Made by a program: the position numbers and the translations under genes
Origin: Candidatus Woesearchaeota archaeon
GTDB taxonomy: Archaea > Nanobdellota > Nanobdellia > Pacearchaeales > GW2011-AR1
DNA: 39,119 nt
Assembly: GCA_964600565.1 (NCBI GenBank)
Contig: CAZRJS010000005.1
Location: forward strand, 1 to 39,119
Direction: 5' to 3'
In this document: positions 4,187-33,817 of the stretch, piece after piece
How the letters are laid out: the number at the start of each line of letters is the position of its first letter
Position numbering within the stretch: the first letter of the stretch is position 1
Notes under the pieces: model-generated
Databases searched by the model: none
What the model saw: only the letters and a program-made list of their open reading frames with translations
Told to the model about the DNA's origin: nothing

Positions 4187-6070
4187 TTATTTCAATCTTA
4201 AAGTTTCAAGATTTCTTGGAACATTTGTTTCTATTCTATTTATCTTATATAATGCAGAAGATAAATCAAGACATTTTGAAACCTCTCCGTGATTAAGAAT
4301 TATTCTTTTTGGTTTAGGTTTCATATTATTAAAAAAGGATAAAATTTCATTTCTTCCTGAATGAGCACTGAAACCTTCAATTGTGTTAACCTCTAAATTT
4401 ATTTTAACATTCTCTTCTTTTCCATCAACAATCATTTTTGTCTCTTCAAGGCCATCTTGAATTTGTCTACCTAAAGAGCCAACTCCTTGATAACAAACAA
4501 AAATAACTGAATTCTTTTCATTATCTGCAAACTCTCTTAAATATTCAACTGATGCTCCTCCAACAAGCATACCACTTGTTGCCAGAACTAAACAAGGACC
4601 TCCTTCAATTACTTTTTTTCTTTCTTGAGAGGAACCTACCCTTGAAAAAATTTCTTGTGTAAAAGGATTTTTATCCTGGAAAATCTCTACTCTAACTTTG
4701 CTACTTAAAAAATCTGGATATGCTGTATGGATAGCATTAATATCCCAAATCATTCCATCAATATAAATGGGAATTTTGGGGAGCTTTCCATTTTTTATTG
4801 CATCTTGAATAACAAGCATTGTTTCCTGAGCACGACCAAGACCTAATTCAGGCACAAGAATTTTTCCTCCTCTATTAATTGTTTTTTTAATCAATTCAAT
4901 TAATTGTTCCTCTGATTGAGCTCTTGGAGGGAGAATATCTCTCTTTGAACCATAAGTTGCTTCTGTTATTACTGTTTCAACCCTTGGAAAATTAGCATTG
5001 GCAGGATCCAAAAGCCTTGATTTTCCATACTTATAATCTCCAGTATAAACAAGATTATGACAACCATTACCAATATTTAGATGTGTTATTGCTGAACCAA
5101 GAGCATGTCCAGCATTATAAAACGTTAATCTTATATCAGAGGTTACATCAGTTACCTCATTATAATTTAAACAAATACTATGTTTTACCATTTCTTTTAT
5201 ATCTGAAGAATTAAACAAGGGCTGTGCAGCTTGTTTATATGCAACTCCTATAAAATCAAGAGATAAAAGCGCAGCAATATCCCTTGTAGGAGTTGTCATA
5301 TATACTGGACCTTTATAACCCATTTTATATAAATAAGGCAATAAACCAACATGATCTAGATGAGCATGACTTATTATAACTGCATCTAATTGACTAATGT
5401 CAAATTCAGGAATATTAAAATAAGGGAATTTATCTTTTCCTTGAGATGCAACATCAACTCCGCAATCCAAAAGAACCTTTGAATCAGGGGTTTGCAGTAA
5501 AATTCCACTTCTACCAACCTGCCTTGCTCCACCTAAAAAAGTTACTCTTATCCAATTATCTCTTTTTTCATCATTAAAATCCTTATAAATTTTCTCCCCT
5601 ACTGAATTAAGAAATTTTCTTCTGTAATTATTATTTGCATAAAGAACTTCTCTTACATTCTCGGTTATTTTGCTTTTTATTGAAGGAGACCTTTGAATCT
5701 GTGGTGTCCAAATAGTTGATTTTCTTATTTCTTCAAGAATAAATCCTTGTTTTCCTATAACTAACCCTGGTTTTTTAGCTTCAATAACAACAATACTTCT
5801 TTGTTTATCAAAGATAATATTTGTTACTTCTGCATCTTTTGGAACAATTTTATTAATTTTATCAGTTGTTTCCTCTTCAGATAAAAGGATTTTTTTATCT
5901 GCTCTTAATTCAATTCTTTTCTTAATCTGATTTACAATTTCCCTAATCTTTTTTTCACCATCTTTAAAGAAGTTTTCATTATCTGTATAAAGAACAATAT
6001 TTGCTCCTTCAAAATTCGCTTCAGTAATACTCTCCCTTAATTGTTCAGTTATTTTTTTTAGAATATTCAT
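4187..6070 (-). CDS. aCPSF1 (KH-domain beta-CASP metallo-beta-lactamase ribonuclease)
   Basis: N-terminal KH modules (LVIGKQGFILEEI), the metallo-beta-lactamase motif SHAHLDHVG and a beta-CASP region. At 627 aa this is the aCPSF1 architecture. Confidence 0.85.
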   Translation of the reverse strand: MNILKKITEQLRESITEANFEGANIVLYTDNENFFKDGEKKIREIVNQIKKRIELRADKKILLSEEETTDKINKIVPKDAEVTNIIFDKQRSIVVIEAKKPGLVIGKQGFILEEIRKSTIWTPQIQRSPSIKSKITENVREVLYANNNYRRKFLNSVGEKIYKDFNDEKRDNWIRVTFLGGARQVGRSGILLQTPDSKVLLDCGVDVASQGKDKFPYFNIPEFDISQLDAVIISHAHLDHVGLLPYLYKMGYKGPVYMTTPTRDIAALLSLDFIGVAYKQAAQPLFNSSDIKEMVKHSICLNYNEVTDVTSDIRLTFYNAGHALGSAITHLNIGNGCHNLVYTGDYKYGKSRLLDPANANFPRVETVITEATYGSKRDILPPRAQSEEQLIELIKKTINRGGKILVPELGLGRAQETMLVIQDAIKNGKLPKIPIYIDGMIWDINAIHTAYPDFLSSKVRVEIFQDKNPFTQEIFSRVGSSQERKKVIEGGPCLVLATSGMLVGGASVEYLREFADNEKNSVIFVCYQGVGSLGRQIQDGLEETKMIVDGKEENVKINLEVNTIEGFSAHSGRNEILSFFNNMKPKPKRIILNHGEVSKCLDLSSALYKINRIETNVPRNLETLRLK

Positions 6071-16859: not shown

Positions 16860-16946
16860 ATTAAATAAAAAAAACATAGTTTAAAAATGTTTTAGAATTA
16901 TATTCAAATTCTAATATGAATATGCTTTAGTGAAACAATTAATAAT

Positions 16947-17025
16947 ATATTTATTTCAGAAAAAATTATTTACTGAATAAAATAAAAGTAATTAATAAAA
17001 AATTAACTATTAATAAAACTCCTAA
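16947..17025. repeat. 79-nt intergenic repeat, copy A (upstream of RNase J)
   Basis: Matches 33739-33817 at 68 of 79 positions by my hand alignment, including exact runs ATATTTATTTCAGAAAAAA (19 nt) and AAAAGTAATTAATAAAAAATTA (22 nt). Confidence 0.7.
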
Positions 17026-17117: not shown

Positions 17118-19499
17118 CTAAATTCTAAATCTTAAAATAGCCCCCATTCCTGAAAGATTATAAAATTGCTCTCCTTCTGTTGTCTCTCTTGAAACTATTT
17201 CTATCTTGGCAGAGATTTCTTCTGCAAGTTTTTTTAATTCCTTAAATAAAATTTTTTTATATCCTTTTGTAAAAATTAGGGTTTCTATAGCACCATATTG
17301 CAAAGCTTTTCTTATTTCAGATTCTTTATAAACTACAAGTTCAGAAGTTTCTCCAAGAATTCTGAAAAATTTCTCAAGTAATTTTTTTTCATAAATTATT
17401 TCTTGATTAGCAAGTAATTCTTGTGATCTCTGAACTAATTCATTTAATCCTGTTTCAGATGAATCTCCAATATCTACTCTTCCAATTACTTTTTCTTTAA
17501 GTTTTGTTTTTAAATAATCTCCATCAAGAAATTCATCTTTTGTAGGAACAGGCCCACCAACAATTATACCTCCTAATTTAGGCATTTCAAAAAAACTTTT
17601 TTTCATCTCTTCTGCAATTCTTTTATAAAATTCCTTTGTTAGGTTTTCTGTTATTCTATGAAATCTCTGAGAGGAATTATGAACAATTAACCCATTAGCT
17701 ATAAAATTATGATTTTTAGTTTCAATATCAACAGTACAATTAAACCCAATATTTTCAATTTTATTTATTTTTACTGCTATTAAATTTGAATTATAAAACA
17801 TCTCAAGTCTTCTCTTTAAATCAATATCCAAAATTTTATCCAAAATTTTATTCTTAAAAACTTCTTTGCTCATTTGCCTTTTATTACAAAAGAAATAACC
17901 GCAATGAAAACCTCTCGTATTTAATCCAGAATTTCTAATTATTTTTGCAACTTCAGACCCATTTACTGCTAATTGCCTAACCTTATTCCTGTTACTTCTA
18001 CTTTTAATTAGTTTCTTAACTTTATCTTGTTTTTCTGACGAGGAAAATTTGATTGTATTACAAAATTTTTTTAAAGATTCTAAGTCATCAATTGCTAAGG
18101 TATACCTTAAATTATTGGAATAAGGATTTCTTTTATTATCATATTCACTAACTGAAGAAATAACCCCTAACCTCAATAATGCAAATTGAAATTGTTTTGC
18201 TAAAGTTTTATTGTTAATTCCAAATGCAATTTTGCCTTTAGAAACATATCCTTCTGCATCAAAAAATCCTGAAACAAATCCAGAAAGAGATTTATCAGAA
18301 GATTTTAAAATAATTTGTGGAATTTTTCCTTCCAAAGTTTTATTTTTGTCTGGAAAGATTTGTTTAAATAATTGACTAATTATTCTACTATACACTCTCA
18401 ATTGCCAATAATTTTTAGATTTTCTAAACCTTAAATCAGAATGAATTTCAAAAATTTCCTTAATTAAATTTTTATAATAATTTGCAAACTCCTCTCGTTG
18501 TTCAAAAAAGGTTATTCTATCCTCTTCATAACTTCCATCTCCAAGATAATAACCTAAAATTTTTGCTAATTTTTGATTAATTTTTTTTGGAATTTCAACT
18601 TTTTTAATATTAAAAAATTGTTTAATTTTTGGATAAAAATCTATTTTTTGATCTTTTAAATCAAGATTAATTTTCTCTGGAAAAATTAAATAATCTCCTT
18701 CTTTAATCTCACAAAGAGGTTTCTCAACTATTCCTTTATCACATCTAACAAAAAAAGTGTGCTCTTTTGAAGCATTAATCTCAAATCTAGGGTAAGCAGT
18801 GATTATCTTAAATAATTCTTTTTTATCTTCCCATTTTACAACAAGCGGAGTTTCTTCTATTTTCTCTTTATTAAAATTTTCAGAAATTATTATTAAAGGA
18901 TTATGGGAATCTTTAATCTCAATAATCTCACCATTATTTTTCATGATTAATGTTTCAGGACTTAAGCATTGCCCTCCAGCCCTTATTTTACTTGGAATTC
19001 CAGAAGTCATTTTATGAAGCATCTCTATTCTTTTTCCTTCAAGCATCCCAATAGTGGCTTCTTTTCTATCCATGACTAACAATCCAAAAACTTCAGAAAC
19101 TTCTAACATAAATTCTAATGCTTCAAGAACAAATTCTTTATCACATCTATAAAGACGAGCTTTAAGAGGTATTGGGGGTTCAATCAACCATAATTGCAAA
19201 TCACTCTGACCTTCTACTTTTGAAACATTACCAGAAAAAACCGCTAGTCCATTTTTAGGAGTTTTTTTAAGACCTTTAAGTTCACGAACAATTTTTTCAA
19301 GAGCCTCAATAACATTTTTTCTATTTGAAGCAGATTTTATATTTTTAGCTGTTGCTTTTTCTGCCTCTAATTGTCTCTGAACTGTATTAATATCATAATT
19401 CTCAGGAACATAAACTGTAATCAATTCCGTATGTCTTCCTTTGTAATTTTTCAACTCTTCAACAACTTCTTCAAGCTCTTGTTTTGTTAATATAGTCAT
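17118..19499 (-). CDS. prf1: peptide chain release factor aRF1, interrupted by an intein
   Basis: NIKS motif (AKNIKSAS), then GGQ (RAGGQ) followed immediately by a 431-aa insert. The C-extein resumes SSQRFHRI. At 793 aa it is roughly twice the normal aRF1 length. Confidence 0.9.
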   Translation of the reverse strand: MTILTKQELEEVVEELKNYKGRHTELITVYVPENYDINTVQRQLEAEKATAKNIKSASNRKNVIEALEKIVRELKGLKKTPKNGLAVFSGNVSKVEGQSDLQLWLIEPPIPLKARLYRCDKEFVLEALEFMLEVSEVFGLLVMDRKEATIGMLEGKRIEMLHKMTSGIPSKIRAGGQCLSPETLIMKNNGEIIEIKDSHNPLIIISENFNKEKIEETPLVVKWEDKKELFKIITAYPRFEINASKEHTFFVRCDKGIVEKPLCEIKEGDYLIFPEKINLDLKDQKIDFYPKIKQFFNIKKVEIPKKINQKLAKILGYYLGDGSYEEDRITFFEQREEFANYYKNLIKEIFEIHSDLRFRKSKNYWQLRVYSRIISQLFKQIFPDKNKTLEGKIPQIILKSSDKSLSGFVSGFFDAEGYVSKGKIAFGINNKTLAKQFQFALLRLGVISSVSEYDNKRNPYSNNLRYTLAIDDLESLKKFCNTIKFSSSEKQDKVKKLIKSRSNRNKVRQLAVNGSEVAKIIRNSGLNTRGFHCGYFFCNKRQMSKEVFKNKILDKILDIDLKRRLEMFYNSNLIAVKINKIENIGFNCTVDIETKNHNFIANGLIVHNSSQRFHRITENLTKEFYKRIAEEMKKSFFEMPKLGGIIVGGPVPTKDEFLDGDYLKTKLKEKVIGRVDIGDSSETGLNELVQRSQELLANQEIIYEKKLLEKFFRILGETSELVVYKESEIRKALQYGAIETLIFTKGYKKILFKELKKLAEEISAKIEIVSRETTEGEQFYNLSGMGAILRFRI
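17676..18968 (-). mobile_element. intein with LAGLIDADG homing endonuclease domain (aRF1 residues 178-608)
   Basis: Starts with Cys (CLSPETLIM, block A) and has an SKEH block-B-like motif. LAGLIDADG motifs LGYYLGDGSY and GFFDAEGYV. Ends NHNFIANGLIVHN, followed by the +1 Ser. Boundary codons were checked at 18966-18968 (TGC) and 17676-17678 (AAT). Confidence 0.85.
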
Positions 19500-19723
19500 A
19501 TTAAAGAAAAAAGAATAGAGTTTTTAAAAGTGGTGAATCAAAGCTTGGGTAAACAATATTAAGAAAATATTTATTCCATAAAAAAATTAATTATTATAAA
19601 ACTTCCAGAGGGAAAATTGGATTAAATTAATTTTCTAAATCTGGATATATAAAAAGAAAAACATTAAAAAACAGGTTTTTAGAAAAAAATCATTAAAATA
19701 AAAAGAATTCACCAAAGCAGGGA

Positions 19724-19993
19724 TTAGTAATCATCTGGGGGATTTAAGCAAAATAAAGATTCTATATTAGAATAATCCAATAAATTGCTTTTTTTATTTG
19801 AATGCATTTCATATTGTTGCTTATCTATATATTTAGCTCTTCCTAAAAAAGGCTCTTTAAATTTAGAATCTATAGCAACTATTAGTTCTCCTTCAAGAGA
19901 TTTTATAGTCTCTGGAAGGATTCCCTTAAATCCTATAGGAAGAAATCCAAAAATAAGTCTTTTGATTAATAAATCTCTTTCTTTTCCTTCCAT
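19724..19993 (-). CDS. hypothetical small protein
   Basis: 89-aa ATG ORF with the 34-nt repeat ending 20 nt upstream of the ATG. No family recognised. Confidence 0.4.
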   Translation of the reverse strand: MEGKERDLLIKRLIFGFLPIGFKGILPETIKSLEGELIVAIDSKFKEPFLGRAKYIDKQQYEMHSNKKSNLLDYSNIESLFCLNPPDDY

Positions 19994-20013
19994 ATTTAAT
20001 TATTAAAGTTTAA

Positions 20014-20047
20014 TTTAAATAAATTTATATCCTGGAAAATAAATATT
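20014..20047. repeat. 34-nt perfect direct repeat, copy 1
   Basis: TTTAAATAAATTTATATCCTGGAAAATAAATATT is identical to 21304-21337. Confidence 0.9.
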
Positions 20048-20090
20048 CTATAAAGAAAGAATAATTAAATAGCTGTAAATTATTAGGTCA

Positions 20091-20750
20091 ATGACAAACA
20101 AAAGACCAACAAAATTAAGTTACATAGAAAAAACTACTGGTTTTTCTGTATCTCATGTTTTAGAAGAGCTCCCAACTTATGAATCTTTTTGCAAAACTGT
20201 TTCAAAAGATAAAAGAATTTTAGTAAATGAATCTTGCTCTACAGATGAAAAATGGTTTCCGGGGATTGTCAATATACATCAAAGAAAAATTGGAATTGCT
20301 AAAAATAATATATATGCTTTTCTAGATGGAAACTCTATCTGTGCTTCTGAATTTTATGATTGGGCTTTCCAAGCTGAAGATAAATCCAATAATTCAATGA
20401 TAACTGGCCTCTATAAACAATATAGACCGATGTTTGCATTTGAAGGCAATTATTCAGTTCTTAGTAAAGCGCCGTTTGTAATATTTGCATTTGGTATAAA
20501 TATTAATCACGAAAAATTGGAAAGAACAATGAACCAATTTTTTGACAGCACAAAATTAAACCCAAAAAAATTATCAGAAAAAGACATCTTAGATTTTAAT
20601 GCAAGAAAAAGAGATATAATAACCTCTATAGATGACGCATATGAAAAGATGCATAGATTCAAAGATTTTTCTGCTGATTTTGGATATGAATTAATGCAAA
20701 AGAATCAATTATATGATCGTTTTGTTCATGGTGCTGATTTTGGGGCATAA
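20091..20750 (+). CDS. hypothetical protein with possible N-terminal HTH
   Basis: 219-aa ORF. The N-terminus LSYIEKTTGFSVSHVLEEL looks helix-turn-helix-like; the rest is unrecognised. Confidence 0.5.
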   Translation: MTNKRPTKLSYIEKTTGFSVSHVLEELPTYESFCKTVSKDKRILVNESCSTDEKWFPGIVNIHQRKIGIAKNNIYAFLDGNSICASEFYDWAFQAEDKSNNSMITGLYKQYRPMFAFEGNYSVLSKAPFVIFAFGININHEKLERTMNQFFDSTKLNPKKLSEKDILDFNARKRDIITSIDDAYEKMHRFKDFSADFGYELMQKNQLYDRFVHGADFGA

Positions 20751-20794
20751 TATTTTTCTGTTCTAATCCCAACTTGCATAGGTTATTCCAATAA

Positions 20795-20808
20795 CTTTGT
20801 ATACAAAG
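20795..20808. terminator. perfect 14-nt palindrome between convergent genes
   Basis: CTTTGTATACAAAG lies between the stops of 20091..20750 (+) and 20815..21258 (-). It may be a bidirectional terminator hairpin. Confidence 0.3.
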
Positions 20809-20814
20809 AAAAAT

Positions 20815-21258
20815 TCAAGTAAACAAAGACTTCATTAAAAAATTCTTGGGGATTCTCTTTTCTTCATAAAATAAATTTTCAAGATTTTTTAATTCAATAC
20901 TATGGATTTTAAAAGCATTCTTTTGCCAAAATTCTAATCCCCCTTTTGAATAATCTCCAAATGGTTTATACAATTCTCCAAATTTTAAAGTATCTAAAGA
21001 ATTTCCAATTTCATTGTTAATATAAATTTGCCAAAAGGGATTATTAGGGAGAAACCAAATAGTCATTAAAGAGAGTTTATCATTCTCCCTTCCTTTAAAA
21101 TCAATTAAAGGTTCAGAGAATTCAAGGGAAGATTTATATGAACTAATATTTAATTTTGGAGGAAAATAAAGAGAATAACAAGAATTGTTAAAATTTGCTT
21201 TTGTTTTAACAGTAATCATTTTATATCCTCGCTTTTTTTTCAAATTTTTTTGTGACAT
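20815..21258 (-). CDS. hypothetical protein
   Basis: 147-aa ATG ORF with the 34-nt repeat 45 nt upstream. No family recognised. Confidence 0.45.
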   Translation of the reverse strand: MSQKNLKKKRGYKMITVKTKANFNNSCYSLYFPPKLNISSYKSSLEFSEPLIDFKGRENDKLSLMTIWFLPNNPFWQIYINNEIGNSLDTLKFGELYKPFGDYSKGGLEFWQKNAFKIHSIELKNLENLFYEEKRIPKNFLMKSLFT

Positions 21259-21303
21259 TTCAAAAGAACCCCTTATCTTTATATTTTAATGACAGAAATG
21301 TAT

Positions 21304-21337
21304 TTTAAATAAATTTATATCCTGGAAAATAAATATT
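21304..21337. repeat. 34-nt perfect direct repeat, copy 2
   Basis: Identical to 20014-20047. Confidence 0.9.
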
Positions 21338-21360
21338 AAATAGAAAAAATTAAATTGCTT

Positions 21361-21630
21361 TTACCTAAGAATATATTTTTCATAACCCCGGATATCAATC
21401 CAGTTTGTTACAGATAAAGAATCCCATATTTTAGAATTAACCTCACAATATTTTTTCTCTCCATCAAAAATTATCCTTTTTTCAGATTGATTAAATCTTG
21501 CAAAATTACACCTTATAGCTAATCTATCATTAAAAATAGATTTTACTTCATAAAGAACAGCTTCATCTCCTTTAAACAAAACAACATCCCCTATTTTATA
21601 AGGTTTTCCTTCTAATTCTTCTAATTTCAT
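21361..21630 (-). CDS. hypothetical small beta-rich protein
   Basis: 89-aa ATG ORF. KPYKIGDVVLFKGDEAVLYEVKS is reminiscent of an SH3/KOW-like barrel. No family recognised. Confidence 0.45.
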   Translation of the reverse strand: MKLEELEGKPYKIGDVVLFKGDEAVLYEVKSIFNDRLAIRCNFARFNQSEKRIIFDGEKKYCEVNSKIWDSLSVTNWIDIRGYEKYILR

Positions 21631-21682
21631 AAAAATAATTAATTATTTTTCTTTTTTAAAAATTTATATTGTTTAAACTATC

Positions 21683-24136
21683 TTAATTAAACTCTACATT
21701 AAACTTCCCCTCTTTAATCTCTTTGGCATTTGTAACATTTTTTAAATCAGGTAAAACACTTTTTAATTTATCTTTATCTTTTTTACTAATTGACAAAATA
21801 ATTTCTGAATTCATTGGTTTTTTTGCTTTTGTTTTTTCCTGCCTAACTAGAGAGATAATCTCTGTAAGAGCATCCCAAATAATTTTTTCATTATTAACTT
21901 CTTTTAAATTAAATAACTTAAATTCTGGCCATTTAGAGAGGTGAATAGATTTATCTTTTTCATATTTCTTAAAATAAGTTTGATAAATCTCTTCTGTAAT
22001 AAAAGGAACTATTGGAGAAAAAACATTTATTATTGCTAGAAGAGAAGTATATAAAGTATATTGGGCAGATTTTTTTTCATCTTTATCCCCATTATAGATT
22101 CTTTTTTTAATAATTTCAAGATAATTATCACAAAAATCTTTCCAAAAAAATTGTTCTACTTCTTGTTTCACTTTTGAATATTCATAATTTGAAAAATGTT
22201 TTGTAATACTTTTTATTATAACAAAAAGCTTATTAAGAAAAATTCTATCCAAAATTTCAAGATTTTTTGGTTTTTTAAAATCATAATCTTCTAAATTCAT
22301 AAAAACAAATTTTGAAGCATTTGTTAATTTTATTATGAATTTTTTTCCTGAAATAACATCTTGTTCCTGATAATCAAAATCTTTTCCAAGTTTTGAAGAA
22401 GCTGCCCAAAATCTCATAGCATCAGCACCATATTTTTCAATAACCTCTTGAGGCCTTATTATATTTCCTTTTGATTTAGACATTTTCTCTCCTTTAAGTG
22501 TAACAAAACCAGAAATAGCGACATCTTTCCAGGGATTTTTATTAAAATGTAGTCTTGATTTAACAAGTGTATTAAAAAGCCAAAAAGAAATTATTTCATG
22601 TGCCTGAGGCCTTAAACTCATGGGAAATATTTTTTTTGAATATTTTTCTTCAACTAATCCGGCAACAATCTGTGGAGTCATTGATGAAGTAAACCAGGTA
22701 TTAAGCACATCTTTTTCAGGAATAAAACTTTTTGATTTGCACTTTGGACATTGTTTAACATAAGGTTTATCTTTAAAAGGGTCTACAGGCAAATCCTCTT
22801 CTCTTGCTAAAATAATCTCTCCACATTTTCTGCAATACCAAACAGGAAATGGAATTCCAAAATGTCTTTGATTAGAAACCAACCAATCCCATTGTAATCC
22901 TTTAACCCAATTATCATAACGAGTTTTCATGAATTTCGGATACCAGTTTAATTCAGCCCCCCAACTTAACATATCTTTTTTAATATCAAGATATTTCAAA
23001 AACCACTGCTTTGTTTTAATAAATTCTATTTCAGTTCCACATCTCTCGTGAACATTAACAGGATGAACAATTTCTTCTTGCTTAACTAATAAATTTTGCT
23101 CTTTTAAATCACTAATAATTGCTTTTCTTGCTTCTTTAACTCTCATTCCTTTATATTTTCCAGAAATAGAAGTCATTTTTCCCTCCTTACTTATAGCTTC
23201 TTTTATTGGAAGATTATAAGCTTTCTGCCATTCCATATCTGTTTGGTCTCCAAAAGTAGCACAATAAGCAATACCTGTTCCTTTTTTAGGGTCTGCTCTT
23301 TTATCTTCTAAAATTGGAACTTCAAAATTAAACAAAGGAATTTCAGCTTTCTTCCCTTTTAAGTGCTTATATCTCTTGTCATTTGGATTATAAAAAACAG
23401 CAACACTTGCAGGAAAAAGTTCTGGTCTTGTGGTAGAAATAATTAAATCTTCTTTTCCAACTTTAAGTATAACATCAATAAAATTTGAATGTAAATTTTT
23501 ATCTTCAACCTCAACCTGAGCAACACCTGTCCTGCATTCTGGACAATACATTGCAGGAGCATCTCTTCTTTCCATTCTTTTTTTCTTATATAAATCTAAA
23601 AAACTCCATTGTGAAATTATCCTGGAATTTTTTTCAATTGTTGAATAAATCATATTCCAATCACAACTTATTCCTATATTTTTCCAATCTAAAATAAATT
23701 TAGGCATTTCCTTCTCAACAAAATTTGTGCAAAGAAGTATGAAATCATTTCTTGACATTTCTTTTGACTTAACATTATTCTTTCTTTCAACAAGTCTCTC
23801 TGTTGGAAGTCCATTATTATCTACCCCAAAAGGATAAAAAACATTATAACCAATCTTTCTTCTAAACCTTGCTATAAAATCTTGTTGTGAATAAGAACAT
23901 GCATGCCCAATATGCATCTCTCCAGAAAAAGTTGGGGGCGGGGTGTCTATAGAAAAAACAGGTTTATCTGAATCTAGATTAAAATTATAAATTTTCTCTT
24001 TTTCCCAAAATTCCTTGTATTTTTTTTCTATTCCAACGAAATCTGGTTTATTTCTGCGCGAAGGCACAGTCTTAGATTTCGTGGAGCCAGAAATCAAAGA
24101 TTTCTGAGCGTCTTTAAAATCAATTTGGTTTTTCAT
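21683..24136 (-). CDS. valS: valine--tRNA ligase
   Basis: Class I signatures TPPPTFSGEMHIGHA (HIGH) and KMSKSKGN (KMSKS). FGVDNNGLPTE and the overall length fit the archaeal-type ValRS. The track start at 24145 is a TTG; the first ATG is at 24136. Confidence 0.85.
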   Translation of the reverse strand: MKNQIDFKDAQKSLISGSTKSKTVPSRRNKPDFVGIEKKYKEFWEKEKIYNFNLDSDKPVFSIDTPPPTFSGEMHIGHACSYSQQDFIARFRRKIGYNVFYPFGVDNNGLPTERLVERKNNVKSKEMSRNDFILLCTNFVEKEMPKFILDWKNIGISCDWNMIYSTIEKNSRIISQWSFLDLYKKKRMERRDAPAMYCPECRTGVAQVEVEDKNLHSNFIDVILKVGKEDLIISTTRPELFPASVAVFYNPNDKRYKHLKGKKAEIPLFNFEVPILEDKRADPKKGTGIAYCATFGDQTDMEWQKAYNLPIKEAISKEGKMTSISGKYKGMRVKEARKAIISDLKEQNLLVKQEEIVHPVNVHERCGTEIEFIKTKQWFLKYLDIKKDMLSWGAELNWYPKFMKTRYDNWVKGLQWDWLVSNQRHFGIPFPVWYCRKCGEIILAREEDLPVDPFKDKPYVKQCPKCKSKSFIPEKDVLNTWFTSSMTPQIVAGLVEEKYSKKIFPMSLRPQAHEIISFWLFNTLVKSRLHFNKNPWKDVAISGFVTLKGEKMSKSKGNIIRPQEVIEKYGADAMRFWAASSKLGKDFDYQEQDVISGKKFIIKLTNASKFVFMNLEDYDFKKPKNLEILDRIFLNKLFVIIKSITKHFSNYEYSKVKQEVEQFFWKDFCDNYLEIIKKRIYNGDKDEKKSAQYTLYTSLLAIINVFSPIVPFITEEIYQTYFKKYEKDKSIHLSKWPEFKLFNLKEVNNEKIIWDALTEIISLVRQEKTKAKKPMNSEIILSISKKDKDKLKSVLPDLKNVTNAKEIKEGKFNVEFN

Positions 24137-24245
24137 AATAACCAATCAAGATACAGGAAAGTTATAAAGTTTTCTTAAGATAAAATCTTAGATTTTCCCT
24201 TTAAAAAAATCATTAAGAATTAAATTGATAAATAAATTTTATCTT

Positions 24246-33591: not shown

Positions 33592-33738
33592 TTTAATTAC
33601 TAAAAAAAATCTATTTATAAATGCTTCGACGGGAAATAAAAATTATTTACTTAAAAAATAAGGTGTTAATAAAATTATTAACTACATAATTATCCTGAAA
33701 ATTTCTATTTATAATATTAATAAGGACTATTAAATAAA

Positions 33739-33817
33739 ATATTTATTTCAGAAAAAACTACTTATAGCATAAAAGAAAAGTAATTAATAAAAAATTAGTT
33801 ATCAATAAATCTCTTAA
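33739..33817. repeat. 79-nt intergenic repeat, copy B (upstream of TBP)
   Basis: See 16947-17025; 68 of 79 identical by hand alignment. Confidence 0.7.

Follow-up and report, generated by a model that had tools for sequence, protein, structure and literature searches.

A 34-nucleotide direct repeat in a variable archaeal gene islet as a probable duplicated core promoter

Between the genes for archaeal release factor 1 (aRF1) and valyl-tRNA synthetase (ValRS) of a Candidatus Woesearchaeota archaeon (assembly GCA_964600565.1, contig CAZRJS010000005.1, positions 1–39,119; this whole 39,119-nucleotide stretch is referred to as the window) lies an islet of four small open reading frames (ORF1 to ORF4), in which a perfect direct repeat of 34 nucleotides (nt), TTTAAATAAATTTATATCCTGGAAAATAAATATT, occurs at 20014–20047 and again at 21304–21337. 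The interpretation that we favour, with moderate confidence, is that the 34-mer is a duplicated archaeal core promoter and that the islet, whose gene content is variable, has reused it for two unrelated genes, ORF1 and ORF3. The features on which this interpretation bears are the following.

20014–20047, minus strand: repeat copy 1 (P1), with its promoter-like core at 20032–20014 (8.5 bits in the promoter map of the islet), 20 nt 5' of the ORF1 ATG (19993).
21304–21337, minus strand: repeat copy 2 (P2), with its core, GGATATAAATTTATTTAAA, at 21322–21304 (8.5 bits in the same map), 45 nt 5' of the ORF3 ATG (21258).
19724–19993, minus strand: ORF1, 89 amino acids (aa), an orphan, predicted to be leaderless and to be served by copy 1.
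20815–21258, minus strand: ORF3, 147 aa, a member of a rare DPANN protein family; the core promoter also precedes its homologues in relatives.

The core promoter of leaderless archaeal genes combines an A-rich transcription factor B recognition element (BRE) with a T/A-rich TATA box downstream of it, the spacing to the start being fixed. Aligned on the ATG, the upstream regions of the present genome are A-rich from −35 to −32, display TTT from −29 to −27 and are again A-rich from −26 to −22. A 19-nt position weight matrix (PWM; a BRE followed by TTTAWAAA), learned from 1133 upstream regions of this genome and refined by expectation maximization (EM), places the end of the motif 21 nt from the ATG in 106 genes, which form a sharp peak, 20 nt in 50 genes and 22 nt in 41; as judged from sequence, this spacing is that of a leaderless architecture. 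The 3' part of the 34-mer on the minus strand is a 19-nt core, GGATATAAATTTATTTAAA, that conforms to the host's own BRE and TATA consensus and scores 8.1 bits under the EM-refined model (rank 149 of 1133). The distances of 20 and 45 nt to the ORF1 and ORF3 start codons reported in the original prediction are correct: copy 1 lies at the canonical leaderless distance (20–22 nt in this host), and copy 2 is the sole strong promoter-like site upstream of the ORF3 ATG at 21258. It had also been suggested that a 34-mer found upstream of many unrelated genes would be a generic promoter. The full 34-mer is unique to the islet, whereas near-matches to its 19-nt core (at most 4 mismatches) do cluster 19–22 nt upstream of ORF starts, with 12 of them in the 20–24 nt bin versus 1 in the reversed control. 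Altogether, the repeat core is, by its composition and position, a good BRE/TATA promoter of this lineage.

The core also precedes ORF3 homologues in relatives. Locus L006 displays, on one strand, the ValRS stop, 6 nt, GGATATAAATTTATTTAAA, 21 nt, the ATG of an ORF3 homologue (51% identity), 170 nt and the N-terminus of aRF1, without ORF1, ORF2 or ORF4; the core thus occupies there the position of copy 2, after ValRS and before ORF3. In genome G137, AAATATAAATTTATTTAAA, the only match with at most one mismatch in that genome, is found 22 nt before an ORF3 homologue located between the genes for Sec61-beta and NAC. In genome G073, AGATATAAATTTTATTAA lies upstream of the ORF3 homologue, and a looser version of the core is present at that of genome G267. 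The genomic contexts of the ORF3 homologues and their core promoter differ between genera. Note that the G267 homologue (L026, G267:C9, approximately 4847–5368) has no in-frame ATG, GTG or TTG near its 5' end, the nearest ATG (4872) being out of frame, which may reflect a frameshift, a pseudogene, an error in the metagenome-assembled genome (MAG) or an unusual start codon.

Genes unrelated to ORF3 carry the core as well. The exact 19-mer has 45 copies in 185,579 species genomes, most of them in scattered bacteria and five in DPANN MAGs; in three of the latter it stands 22 nt upstream of a gene unrelated to ORF3, encoding either a 91-aa protein (a Woesearchaeota MAG) or an RPA-like OB-fold protein (two Nanoarchaeota MAGs; L062 1044–1062 and L081 1397–1415). 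The presence of the core both before ORF3 homologues and before unrelated DPANN genes argues for a promoter rather than for the end of a mobile element. The idea of a shared promoter, put forward in the original prediction, thus gains support from the BRE/TATA match, from the canonical distance of copy 1 and from the core found before the ORF3 homologues of relatives.

The repeat itself is genuine, and there is next to no likelihood that it is an assembly artefact or a chance match, an explanation that has nothing more in its favour than the AT-richness of the region. No match was obtained in 100 shuffles, which bears out the earlier statement that an exact 34-mer is beyond chance, and the repeat is identical in MEGAHIT, JGI and Logan assemblies derived from different samples. 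More specifically, the ENA (MEGAHIT) and JGI assemblies of the same population are 100% identical across 19500–21700, and a Logan contig of 1316 nt corresponds to the 1256-nt inter-repeat segment plus 2 × 30 nt; this is the size expected if a k=31 graph breaks at a repeat of at least 31 nt, so that the repeat is not produced by assembly. No third copy is present in the 1,405,116 bases of the assembly, even when up to 6 mismatches are allowed. With two copies at this tolerance, the 34-mer does not behave like a dispersed repeat or a miniature inverted-repeat transposable element, for which many copies genome-wide and terminal inverted repeats would be expected. The exact 34-mer was not found in a metagenome scan either, in which near-identical records may be masked.

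What surrounds the repeat suggests that little else was copied with it. Similarity around the 34-mer extends weakly, to 64 nt at 83%, with 12/20 and 11/20 identities in the adjoining flanks, but the similarity outside the 34-mer is not significant (local alignment p = 0.13 downstream and 0.18 upstream). Likewise, ORF1 and ORF3 show no similarity by BLASTP or hhalign. Since the two genes are unrelated and the flanks are not similar, it would be the promoter alone that was copied. The residual flank similarity could also be taken as the trace of an old duplicate or, failing that, the two copies could be convergent strong promoters, the central tract having in either case been recently homogenised by gene conversion so that no recent duplication would be needed. 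The strong constraint on the core across genera is consistent with this scenario, which we nevertheless regard as quite unlikely: in DNA this rich in A and T the flank similarity lacks significance, roughly 19 nt of homology would be an unusual seed for a conversion tract, and the scenario differs from promoter duplication solely in the origin of the identity.

If the 34-mer is a duplicated core promoter, TBP and TFB would bind the A-rich BRE/TATA sequence in GGATATAAATTTATTTAAA and RNA polymerase would be placed approximately 20–25 nt downstream. Copy 1 would then give a leaderless ORF1 mRNA, because the ORF1 ATG is 20 nt from the motif, and copy 2 an mRNA in which ORF3 follows a leader of some 24 nt containing a G-rich, Shine-Dalgarno-like stretch. 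ORF1 and ORF3, although unrelated, would share one promoter sequence together with any factor reading that sequence. As to the history of the islet, the core would be the inherited promoter of the ORF3 family, the normally empty ValRS–aRF1 gap would have gained three further small genes in this lineage, and one of these, the orphan ORF1, would use a copy, identical to the letter, of the promoter of its neighbour, by promoter reuse or capture.

Several points weigh against this scheme: (i) copy 2 is 45 nt from the ORF3 ATG, compared to the canonical 20–22 nt, hence the need for the leader; (ii) ORF3 possibly starts at Met14 (position 21219), as chosen by another gene caller, with weaker promoter-like sites 15–18 nt upstream, while the 147-aa start agrees with the lengths of the homologues and with the AlphaFold2 (AF2) model, in which residues 2–10 form a strand; (iii) the 15 outer nt of the repeat (AATATTTATTTTCCA on the minus strand) are uninformative under the promoter model, and their exact identity, for which promoter function alone does not account, implies that the copying was recent, that gene conversion took place or that they include a further binding site; (iv) ORF1 has no homologue and its expression is a prediction; (v) promoter activity, transcription starts and the co-expression of ORF1 and ORF3 are what we infer from sequence; (vi) the geometry of copy 1 (20 nt, then ATGGAAG) is closer to that of the ORF3 starts of relatives than is the geometry of copy 2, so that the direction of copying is ambiguous. 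Note that ATGGAAG is found at 2.1% of the starts in this genome and is therefore weak evidence as to which copy is the original. Either copy could be the original, and we infer that copying could have involved short-patch duplication, gene conversion or recombination.

The 15 nt of exact identity beyond what the basal promoter model needs are also the starting point of another account, in which the 34-mer would be mainly the binding site of a sequence-specific regulator, at or next to the TATA box, and ORF1 and ORF3 would form a small regulon. ORF2 would perhaps belong to it too, as copy 1 lies between divergently oriented genes and, on the plus strand, precedes the ORF2 ATG (20091) by 43 nt. 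Consistent with this account, an extended motif, TCYAGGATATAAATTTATTTAAA, recurs across the phylum: near-matches to this 23-mer number 5 versus 1 in the control among 270 genomes, two of them at +22 of genes, namely an RFC small-subunit gene (L122) and another gene. The RFC gene and the RPA-like genes that follow the 19-mer in L062 and L081 are all replication genes. Besides, copy 1 in the window and the Nanoarchaeota MAG locus L062 have 28 identical nt in common (TCCAGGATATAAATTTATTTAAATTAAA). However, no regulator is identifiable, as ORF1 to ORF4 match no DNA-binding family and the ORF2 model lacks a helix-turn-helix (HTH), so that ORF2 fails as a candidate regulator. Furthermore, the 34-mer, as read from its sequence, has no convincing dyad symmetry, the genome contains two copies and no more, and the genes carrying the extended motif elsewhere are functionally mixed. 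We thus consider the operator account unlikely. A related and speculative possibility, to which we give equally little credit, is that the extended motif, TCYAGGATATAAATTTATTTAAA(TTAAA), is a spreading conserved promoter module or the site of a DPANN-wide regulator, a fresh copy of which would have switched on a newborn or newly acquired ORF1. This proposal is based on the verbatim or near copies found 22 nt upstream of the RPA-like gene, the RFC small-subunit gene and genes of the ORF3 family in different orders; if true, the islet would show, in a reduced archaeal genome, a gene at the moment of its birth through promoter capture.

Several unrelated genes of this genome (on contigs C6, C7, C19 and C32) have another positional motif, TTTTATGAAATAAATATTTT, 64–66 nt before their ATG; it may be an upstream element or a promoter from which leadered transcripts start. 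The window contains a partial match at 19561–19592, about 61 nt upstream of aRF1, and related sequences are found in an 85-nt repeat (16941–17025 and 33733–33817) upstream of the RNase J and TBP genes. The outer half of the 34-mer was considered as an instance of this motif and discarded: it has a one-base insertion and lies 43 nt from ORF2 instead of approximately 65 nt.

The remaining features of the islet and of its borders are listed below.

17118–19499, minus strand: aRF1, which carries an intein.
19521–19539, minus strand: promoter-like site of aRF1 (PWM score 7.2 bits), 21 nt 5' of the aRF1 ATG (19499).
19500–21682: the ValRS–aRF1 gap, 2183 nt, a variable slot inside a conserved gene pair, containing the four ORFs.
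20091–20750, plus strand: ORF2, 219 aa, from a functionally uncharacterised protein family that is rare and has a patchy distribution.
20795–20808: a palindrome of 14 nt, CTTTGTATACAAAG, situated where ORF2 and ORF3 converge and bordered by the run of five T that follows each stop.
21361–21630, minus strand: ORF4, 89 aa, an orphan preceded by a promoter-like site of its own.
21671–21653, minus strand: promoter-like site of ORF4 (9.0 bits), 22 nt from the ATG.
21683–24145, minus strand: ValRS, the gene 5' of the islet in the reading direction.

The four ORFs of 89, 219, 147 and 89 aa, on strands −, +, − and −, were re-derived as originally described. The palindrome is present too but does not stand out as a special feature, since the window holds 10 perfect 14-nt palindromes. 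In the promoter map of the islet, ORF2 has no upstream promoter-like site scoring at least 5.5 bits, and copy 2 sits 23 nt downstream of the ORF4 stop. Note that the listed start of ValRS is a TTG (820 aa), other gene callers placing the start 3 codons later (817 aa).

We surveyed the ValRS–aRF1 slot in the 29 closest relatives, ranked by ValRS similarity, by seeking aRF1 within 1.5 kb of ValRS. The aRF1 gene follows ValRS on the same strand within this distance in 22 of them. In 15 of the 22, including G137, the gap is at most 148 nt long and devoid of ORFs (9–148 nt in 14 cases and an overlap in one); in the other seven, it measures 345–1076 nt and contains one or two ORFs of 55–291 aa. The ORFs in these seven gaps, which include methyltransferase-like and membrane-transporter-like genes, are unrelated to ORF1–ORF4 and to each other; the slot ORF of G073 (142 aa; L027 11950–12378) is homologous to that of L106 (138 aa; 28% identity, E = 7e-15). 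The four-gene, 2183-nt version described here is the largest among the gaps surveyed. The ValRS–aRF1 pair, conserved across the family, thus forms a slot with a variable content of small genes, from none to four. The 14 empty gaps and the overlap were inspected for an empty site with a single repeat copy, and none of them contains a core-like motif; the relative that has the core at the slot (L006) also has ORF3. Elsewhere, genes of the ORF2 family are never found near relatives of ORF1, ORF3 or ORF4, which indicates that the four genes do not constitute a conserved module.

That small foreign genes have landed repeatedly in the slot is compatible with the other possibility raised in the original prediction, namely that ORF3 and ORF2 arrived as a 1.29-kb insertion with the two repeat copies as recombination junctions, one at each end, entry and exit occurring by recombination across the 34-nt identity. 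Indeed, the two direct repeats are exact, have sharp edges and enclose a discrete segment of 1256 nt, the contexts in which ORF3 homologues and their core promoter are found differ across genera, and a deletion between the repeats would leave a promoter at the canonical distance from ORF1. However, L006 has ValRS, the core, ORF3 and aRF1 without ORF2, which shows that ORF3 and ORF2 are not one unit, and the two families never co-occur elsewhere. In agreement with the original observation that integrase and transposase genes are missing, library scans of the four ORFs gave no match, and no integrase, transposase or other recombinase was detected in or near the islet with Pfam, NCBIfam, PHROG and PADLOC. 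Moreover, the core is an ordinary promoter sequence that serves unrelated genes in other DPANN genomes, and the same arrangement is found in every independent assembly that contains ORF2. The insertion is therefore weakened and, in our opinion, rather unlikely.

The sole contig with a different arrangement, L007 (ENA ERZ27316021 k141_119021), was considered as a possible link between ORF3 and phages and then rejected. In this contig, copy 2 and ORF3 as far as codon 137 run into the 5' end of a gene for a phage minor head protein, the junction corresponding to 20847/20848 in the window. Exactly at the junction lies a 22-nt stretch, TATGAAGAAAAGAGAATCCCC, that is common to ORF3 and to two IMG/VR phage contigs of 43% GC carrying the minor head gene (IMGVR_UViG_3300005915_001185 and IMGVR_UViG_3300025697_000651). 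By these sequence features, L007 is an assembly chimera, uninformative as to mobility, and its 147-aa 'protein' (P0002) is an artefact.

None of the four ORFs matches a family in Pfam, NCBIfam, PHROG or PADLOC, nor was any PADLOC or Pfam match to defence or toxin–antitoxin families obtained; all four display gene-like codon usage, and they are not paralogues of one another or of other genes in the genome. The initial view that none can be placed in a family holds for these libraries but is too strict for ORF2 and ORF3, which have rare homologues. A search of 300 same-family genomes yielded no homologue of ORF1, and the codon-usage score of ORF1 is 0.39 compared to an in-frame mean of 0.40. ORF4 matches only itself among 5.8 billion proteins and nothing significantly in the 300 family genomes.

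Of 401 genomes in the taxonomic family, 4, including the present one, contain a member of the ORF3 family, as does one metagenomic contig; a metagenome scan with an ORF3 profile revealed no relatives. The AF2 model of ORF3 is a confident one, has a predicted local distance difference test score (pLDDT) of 84 and a predicted template modelling score (pTM) of 0.82, and finds no fold match in the PDB or BFVD. The Whirly fold was considered and set aside, as the match is not meaningful (E = 0.12, TM score 0.19), and sequence profiles of PDB entries provide at best a weak match (E = 0.35). Overall, fold searches with the ORF2 and ORF3 models returned nothing with E < 0.03 or a TM score > 0.37.

ORF2 is absent from 60 relatives and gave no match in a word-indexed search of 5.8 billion proteins, but an exhaustive phmmer search uncovered four true homologues (33–51% identity), which lie in unrelated contexts with GC contents of 25–52%, one of them adjoining a GGDEF gene. 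Two other candidates, P0009 and P0010, were treated as spurious, as they are giant repetitive proteins whose scores were summed across 10 short stretches. One homologue, P0006 (L035 4414–8650, GCA_002919055.1), belongs to an AT-rich, bacterial-looking island of unrelated, family-less ORFs of about 200 aa; the next-door ORF has a HELGH motif and a hydrophobic N-terminus, and the island is an accessory region. The AF2 model of ORF2 (pLDDT 67, pTM 0.72) has an N-terminal β-hairpin and no fold match in the PDB. The HTH suspected around residues 9–27 is not borne out: the model has strands at residues 8–13 and 16–23, where the pLDDT is 74–86, and Pfam detects no HTH. Sequence profiles of PDB entries yield a weak match to PH1320 (E = 0.0025 across 72 residues).

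The source assembly comprises 1,405,116 bases (about 1.4 Mb) in 170 contigs, with 30.6% GC and 87% completeness; the genomes of the relatives span 0.4–1.3 Mb, sizes that are typical for DPANN archaea. Other observations were made outside the window. Contig C96 (1–3837) has identical 55-nt ends and is probably, on this sequence criterion, a circle of 3.78 kb. It encodes a rolling-circle replication protein (Pfam REP_ORF2-G2P, 35.7 bits versus a cut-off of 27.8; phrog_3419) along with two paralogues, each about 226 aa long and without a family, and may be a small plasmid or virus of the single-stranded DNA type binned with this DPANN genome. A family of exact repeats of 30–150 nt with a sequence resembling a tRNA 3' end (GGATTTGAACC) is arranged in tandem on C18 (approximately 16.6–17.9 kb) and dispersed on C54, C65, C3, C6, C29, C31 and C1; these may be tRNA-linked repeat units. 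Finally, many direct repeats are exactly 55 nt long and have unrelated flanks (C6 23852/24098, C18 10295/10359, C1 37532/37726), and contig-end overlaps also measure 55 nt. This length is probably the k-mer size of the assembler, so the 55-nt repeats are likely to be features of the assembly and not biology.

Altogether, the case is that of a streamlined DPANN genome in which a fixed site, where two essential genes meet, is still gaining small genes, one of the gained genes having apparently been given its expression signals by a word-for-word copy of its neighbour's promoter. To our knowledge, few examples of promoter reuse have been described in Archaea, and this one is concrete and testable. 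It represents a known kind of event in an unusual organism and reveals no new mobile element, defence system or regulatory mechanism. The by-products of the analysis are a promoter model for the lineage, with a BRE/TATA motif ending about 21 nt before the ATG and genes that would be mostly leaderless, two rare protein families, those of ORF2 and ORF3, for which the models gave no match to a known fold, and an empty-site baseline for the ValRS–aRF1 slot.

With respect to known systems, the repeat resembles the att sites of integrated elements in that two exact direct repeats of tens of nucleotides bracket a gene-bearing segment, in a gene pair whose gap is empty in relatives. Unlike att-flanked elements, the islet has no integrase and no tRNA target, its repeat is a promoter that is used elsewhere too, and ORF3, part of the bracketed content, is present at the same site in a relative without the remainder. 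The islet also resembles the variable islets found between core genes, where a conserved pair encloses a gap that is mostly empty and holds differing small accessory genes in some genomes; it differs from them by its tiny scale (0–4 genes), its location in a reduced DPANN genome and its lack of mobility genes and of recognised defence families. As for the sequence of the repeat, it is akin to the BRE/TATA promoters of leaderless archaeal genes, with an A-rich BRE, a T/A-rich TATA box and a fixed distance to the start, and the genome-wide profile is alike. Copy 2, at 45 nt, departs from this pattern: the spacing predicts a leader for ORF3, in contrast to the homologues of relatives, where it is 21 and 22 nt.

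On the favoured interpretation, the arrangement is an instance of promoter reuse, or of the putative mobile promoters described by Matus-Garcia, Nijveen & van Passel (2012; PMC3575422), which are highly similar upstream sequences found before non-homologous genes of one genome. Their operational window extends from −150 to −50 relative to the start codon and their examples are mainly bacterial (PMC3575422), whereas the copies reported here are nearer to the start codons (−54 to −21 for ORF1 and −79 to −46 for ORF3) and belong to a DPANN archaeon with leaderless BRE/TATA promoters. By definition, putative mobile promoters share 50 nt or more at an identity of 80% or higher; here, 64 nt are 83% identical, of which 34 nt are exact, and neither the extension nor the flanks are significant alone. 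As in that definition, the downstream genes are not paralogous, ORF1 and ORF3 showing no similarity. The islet shares with putative mobile promoters a similar upstream sequence before non-homologous genes, independently of any known mobile element, and points to the same route by which genes may be rewired or switched on.

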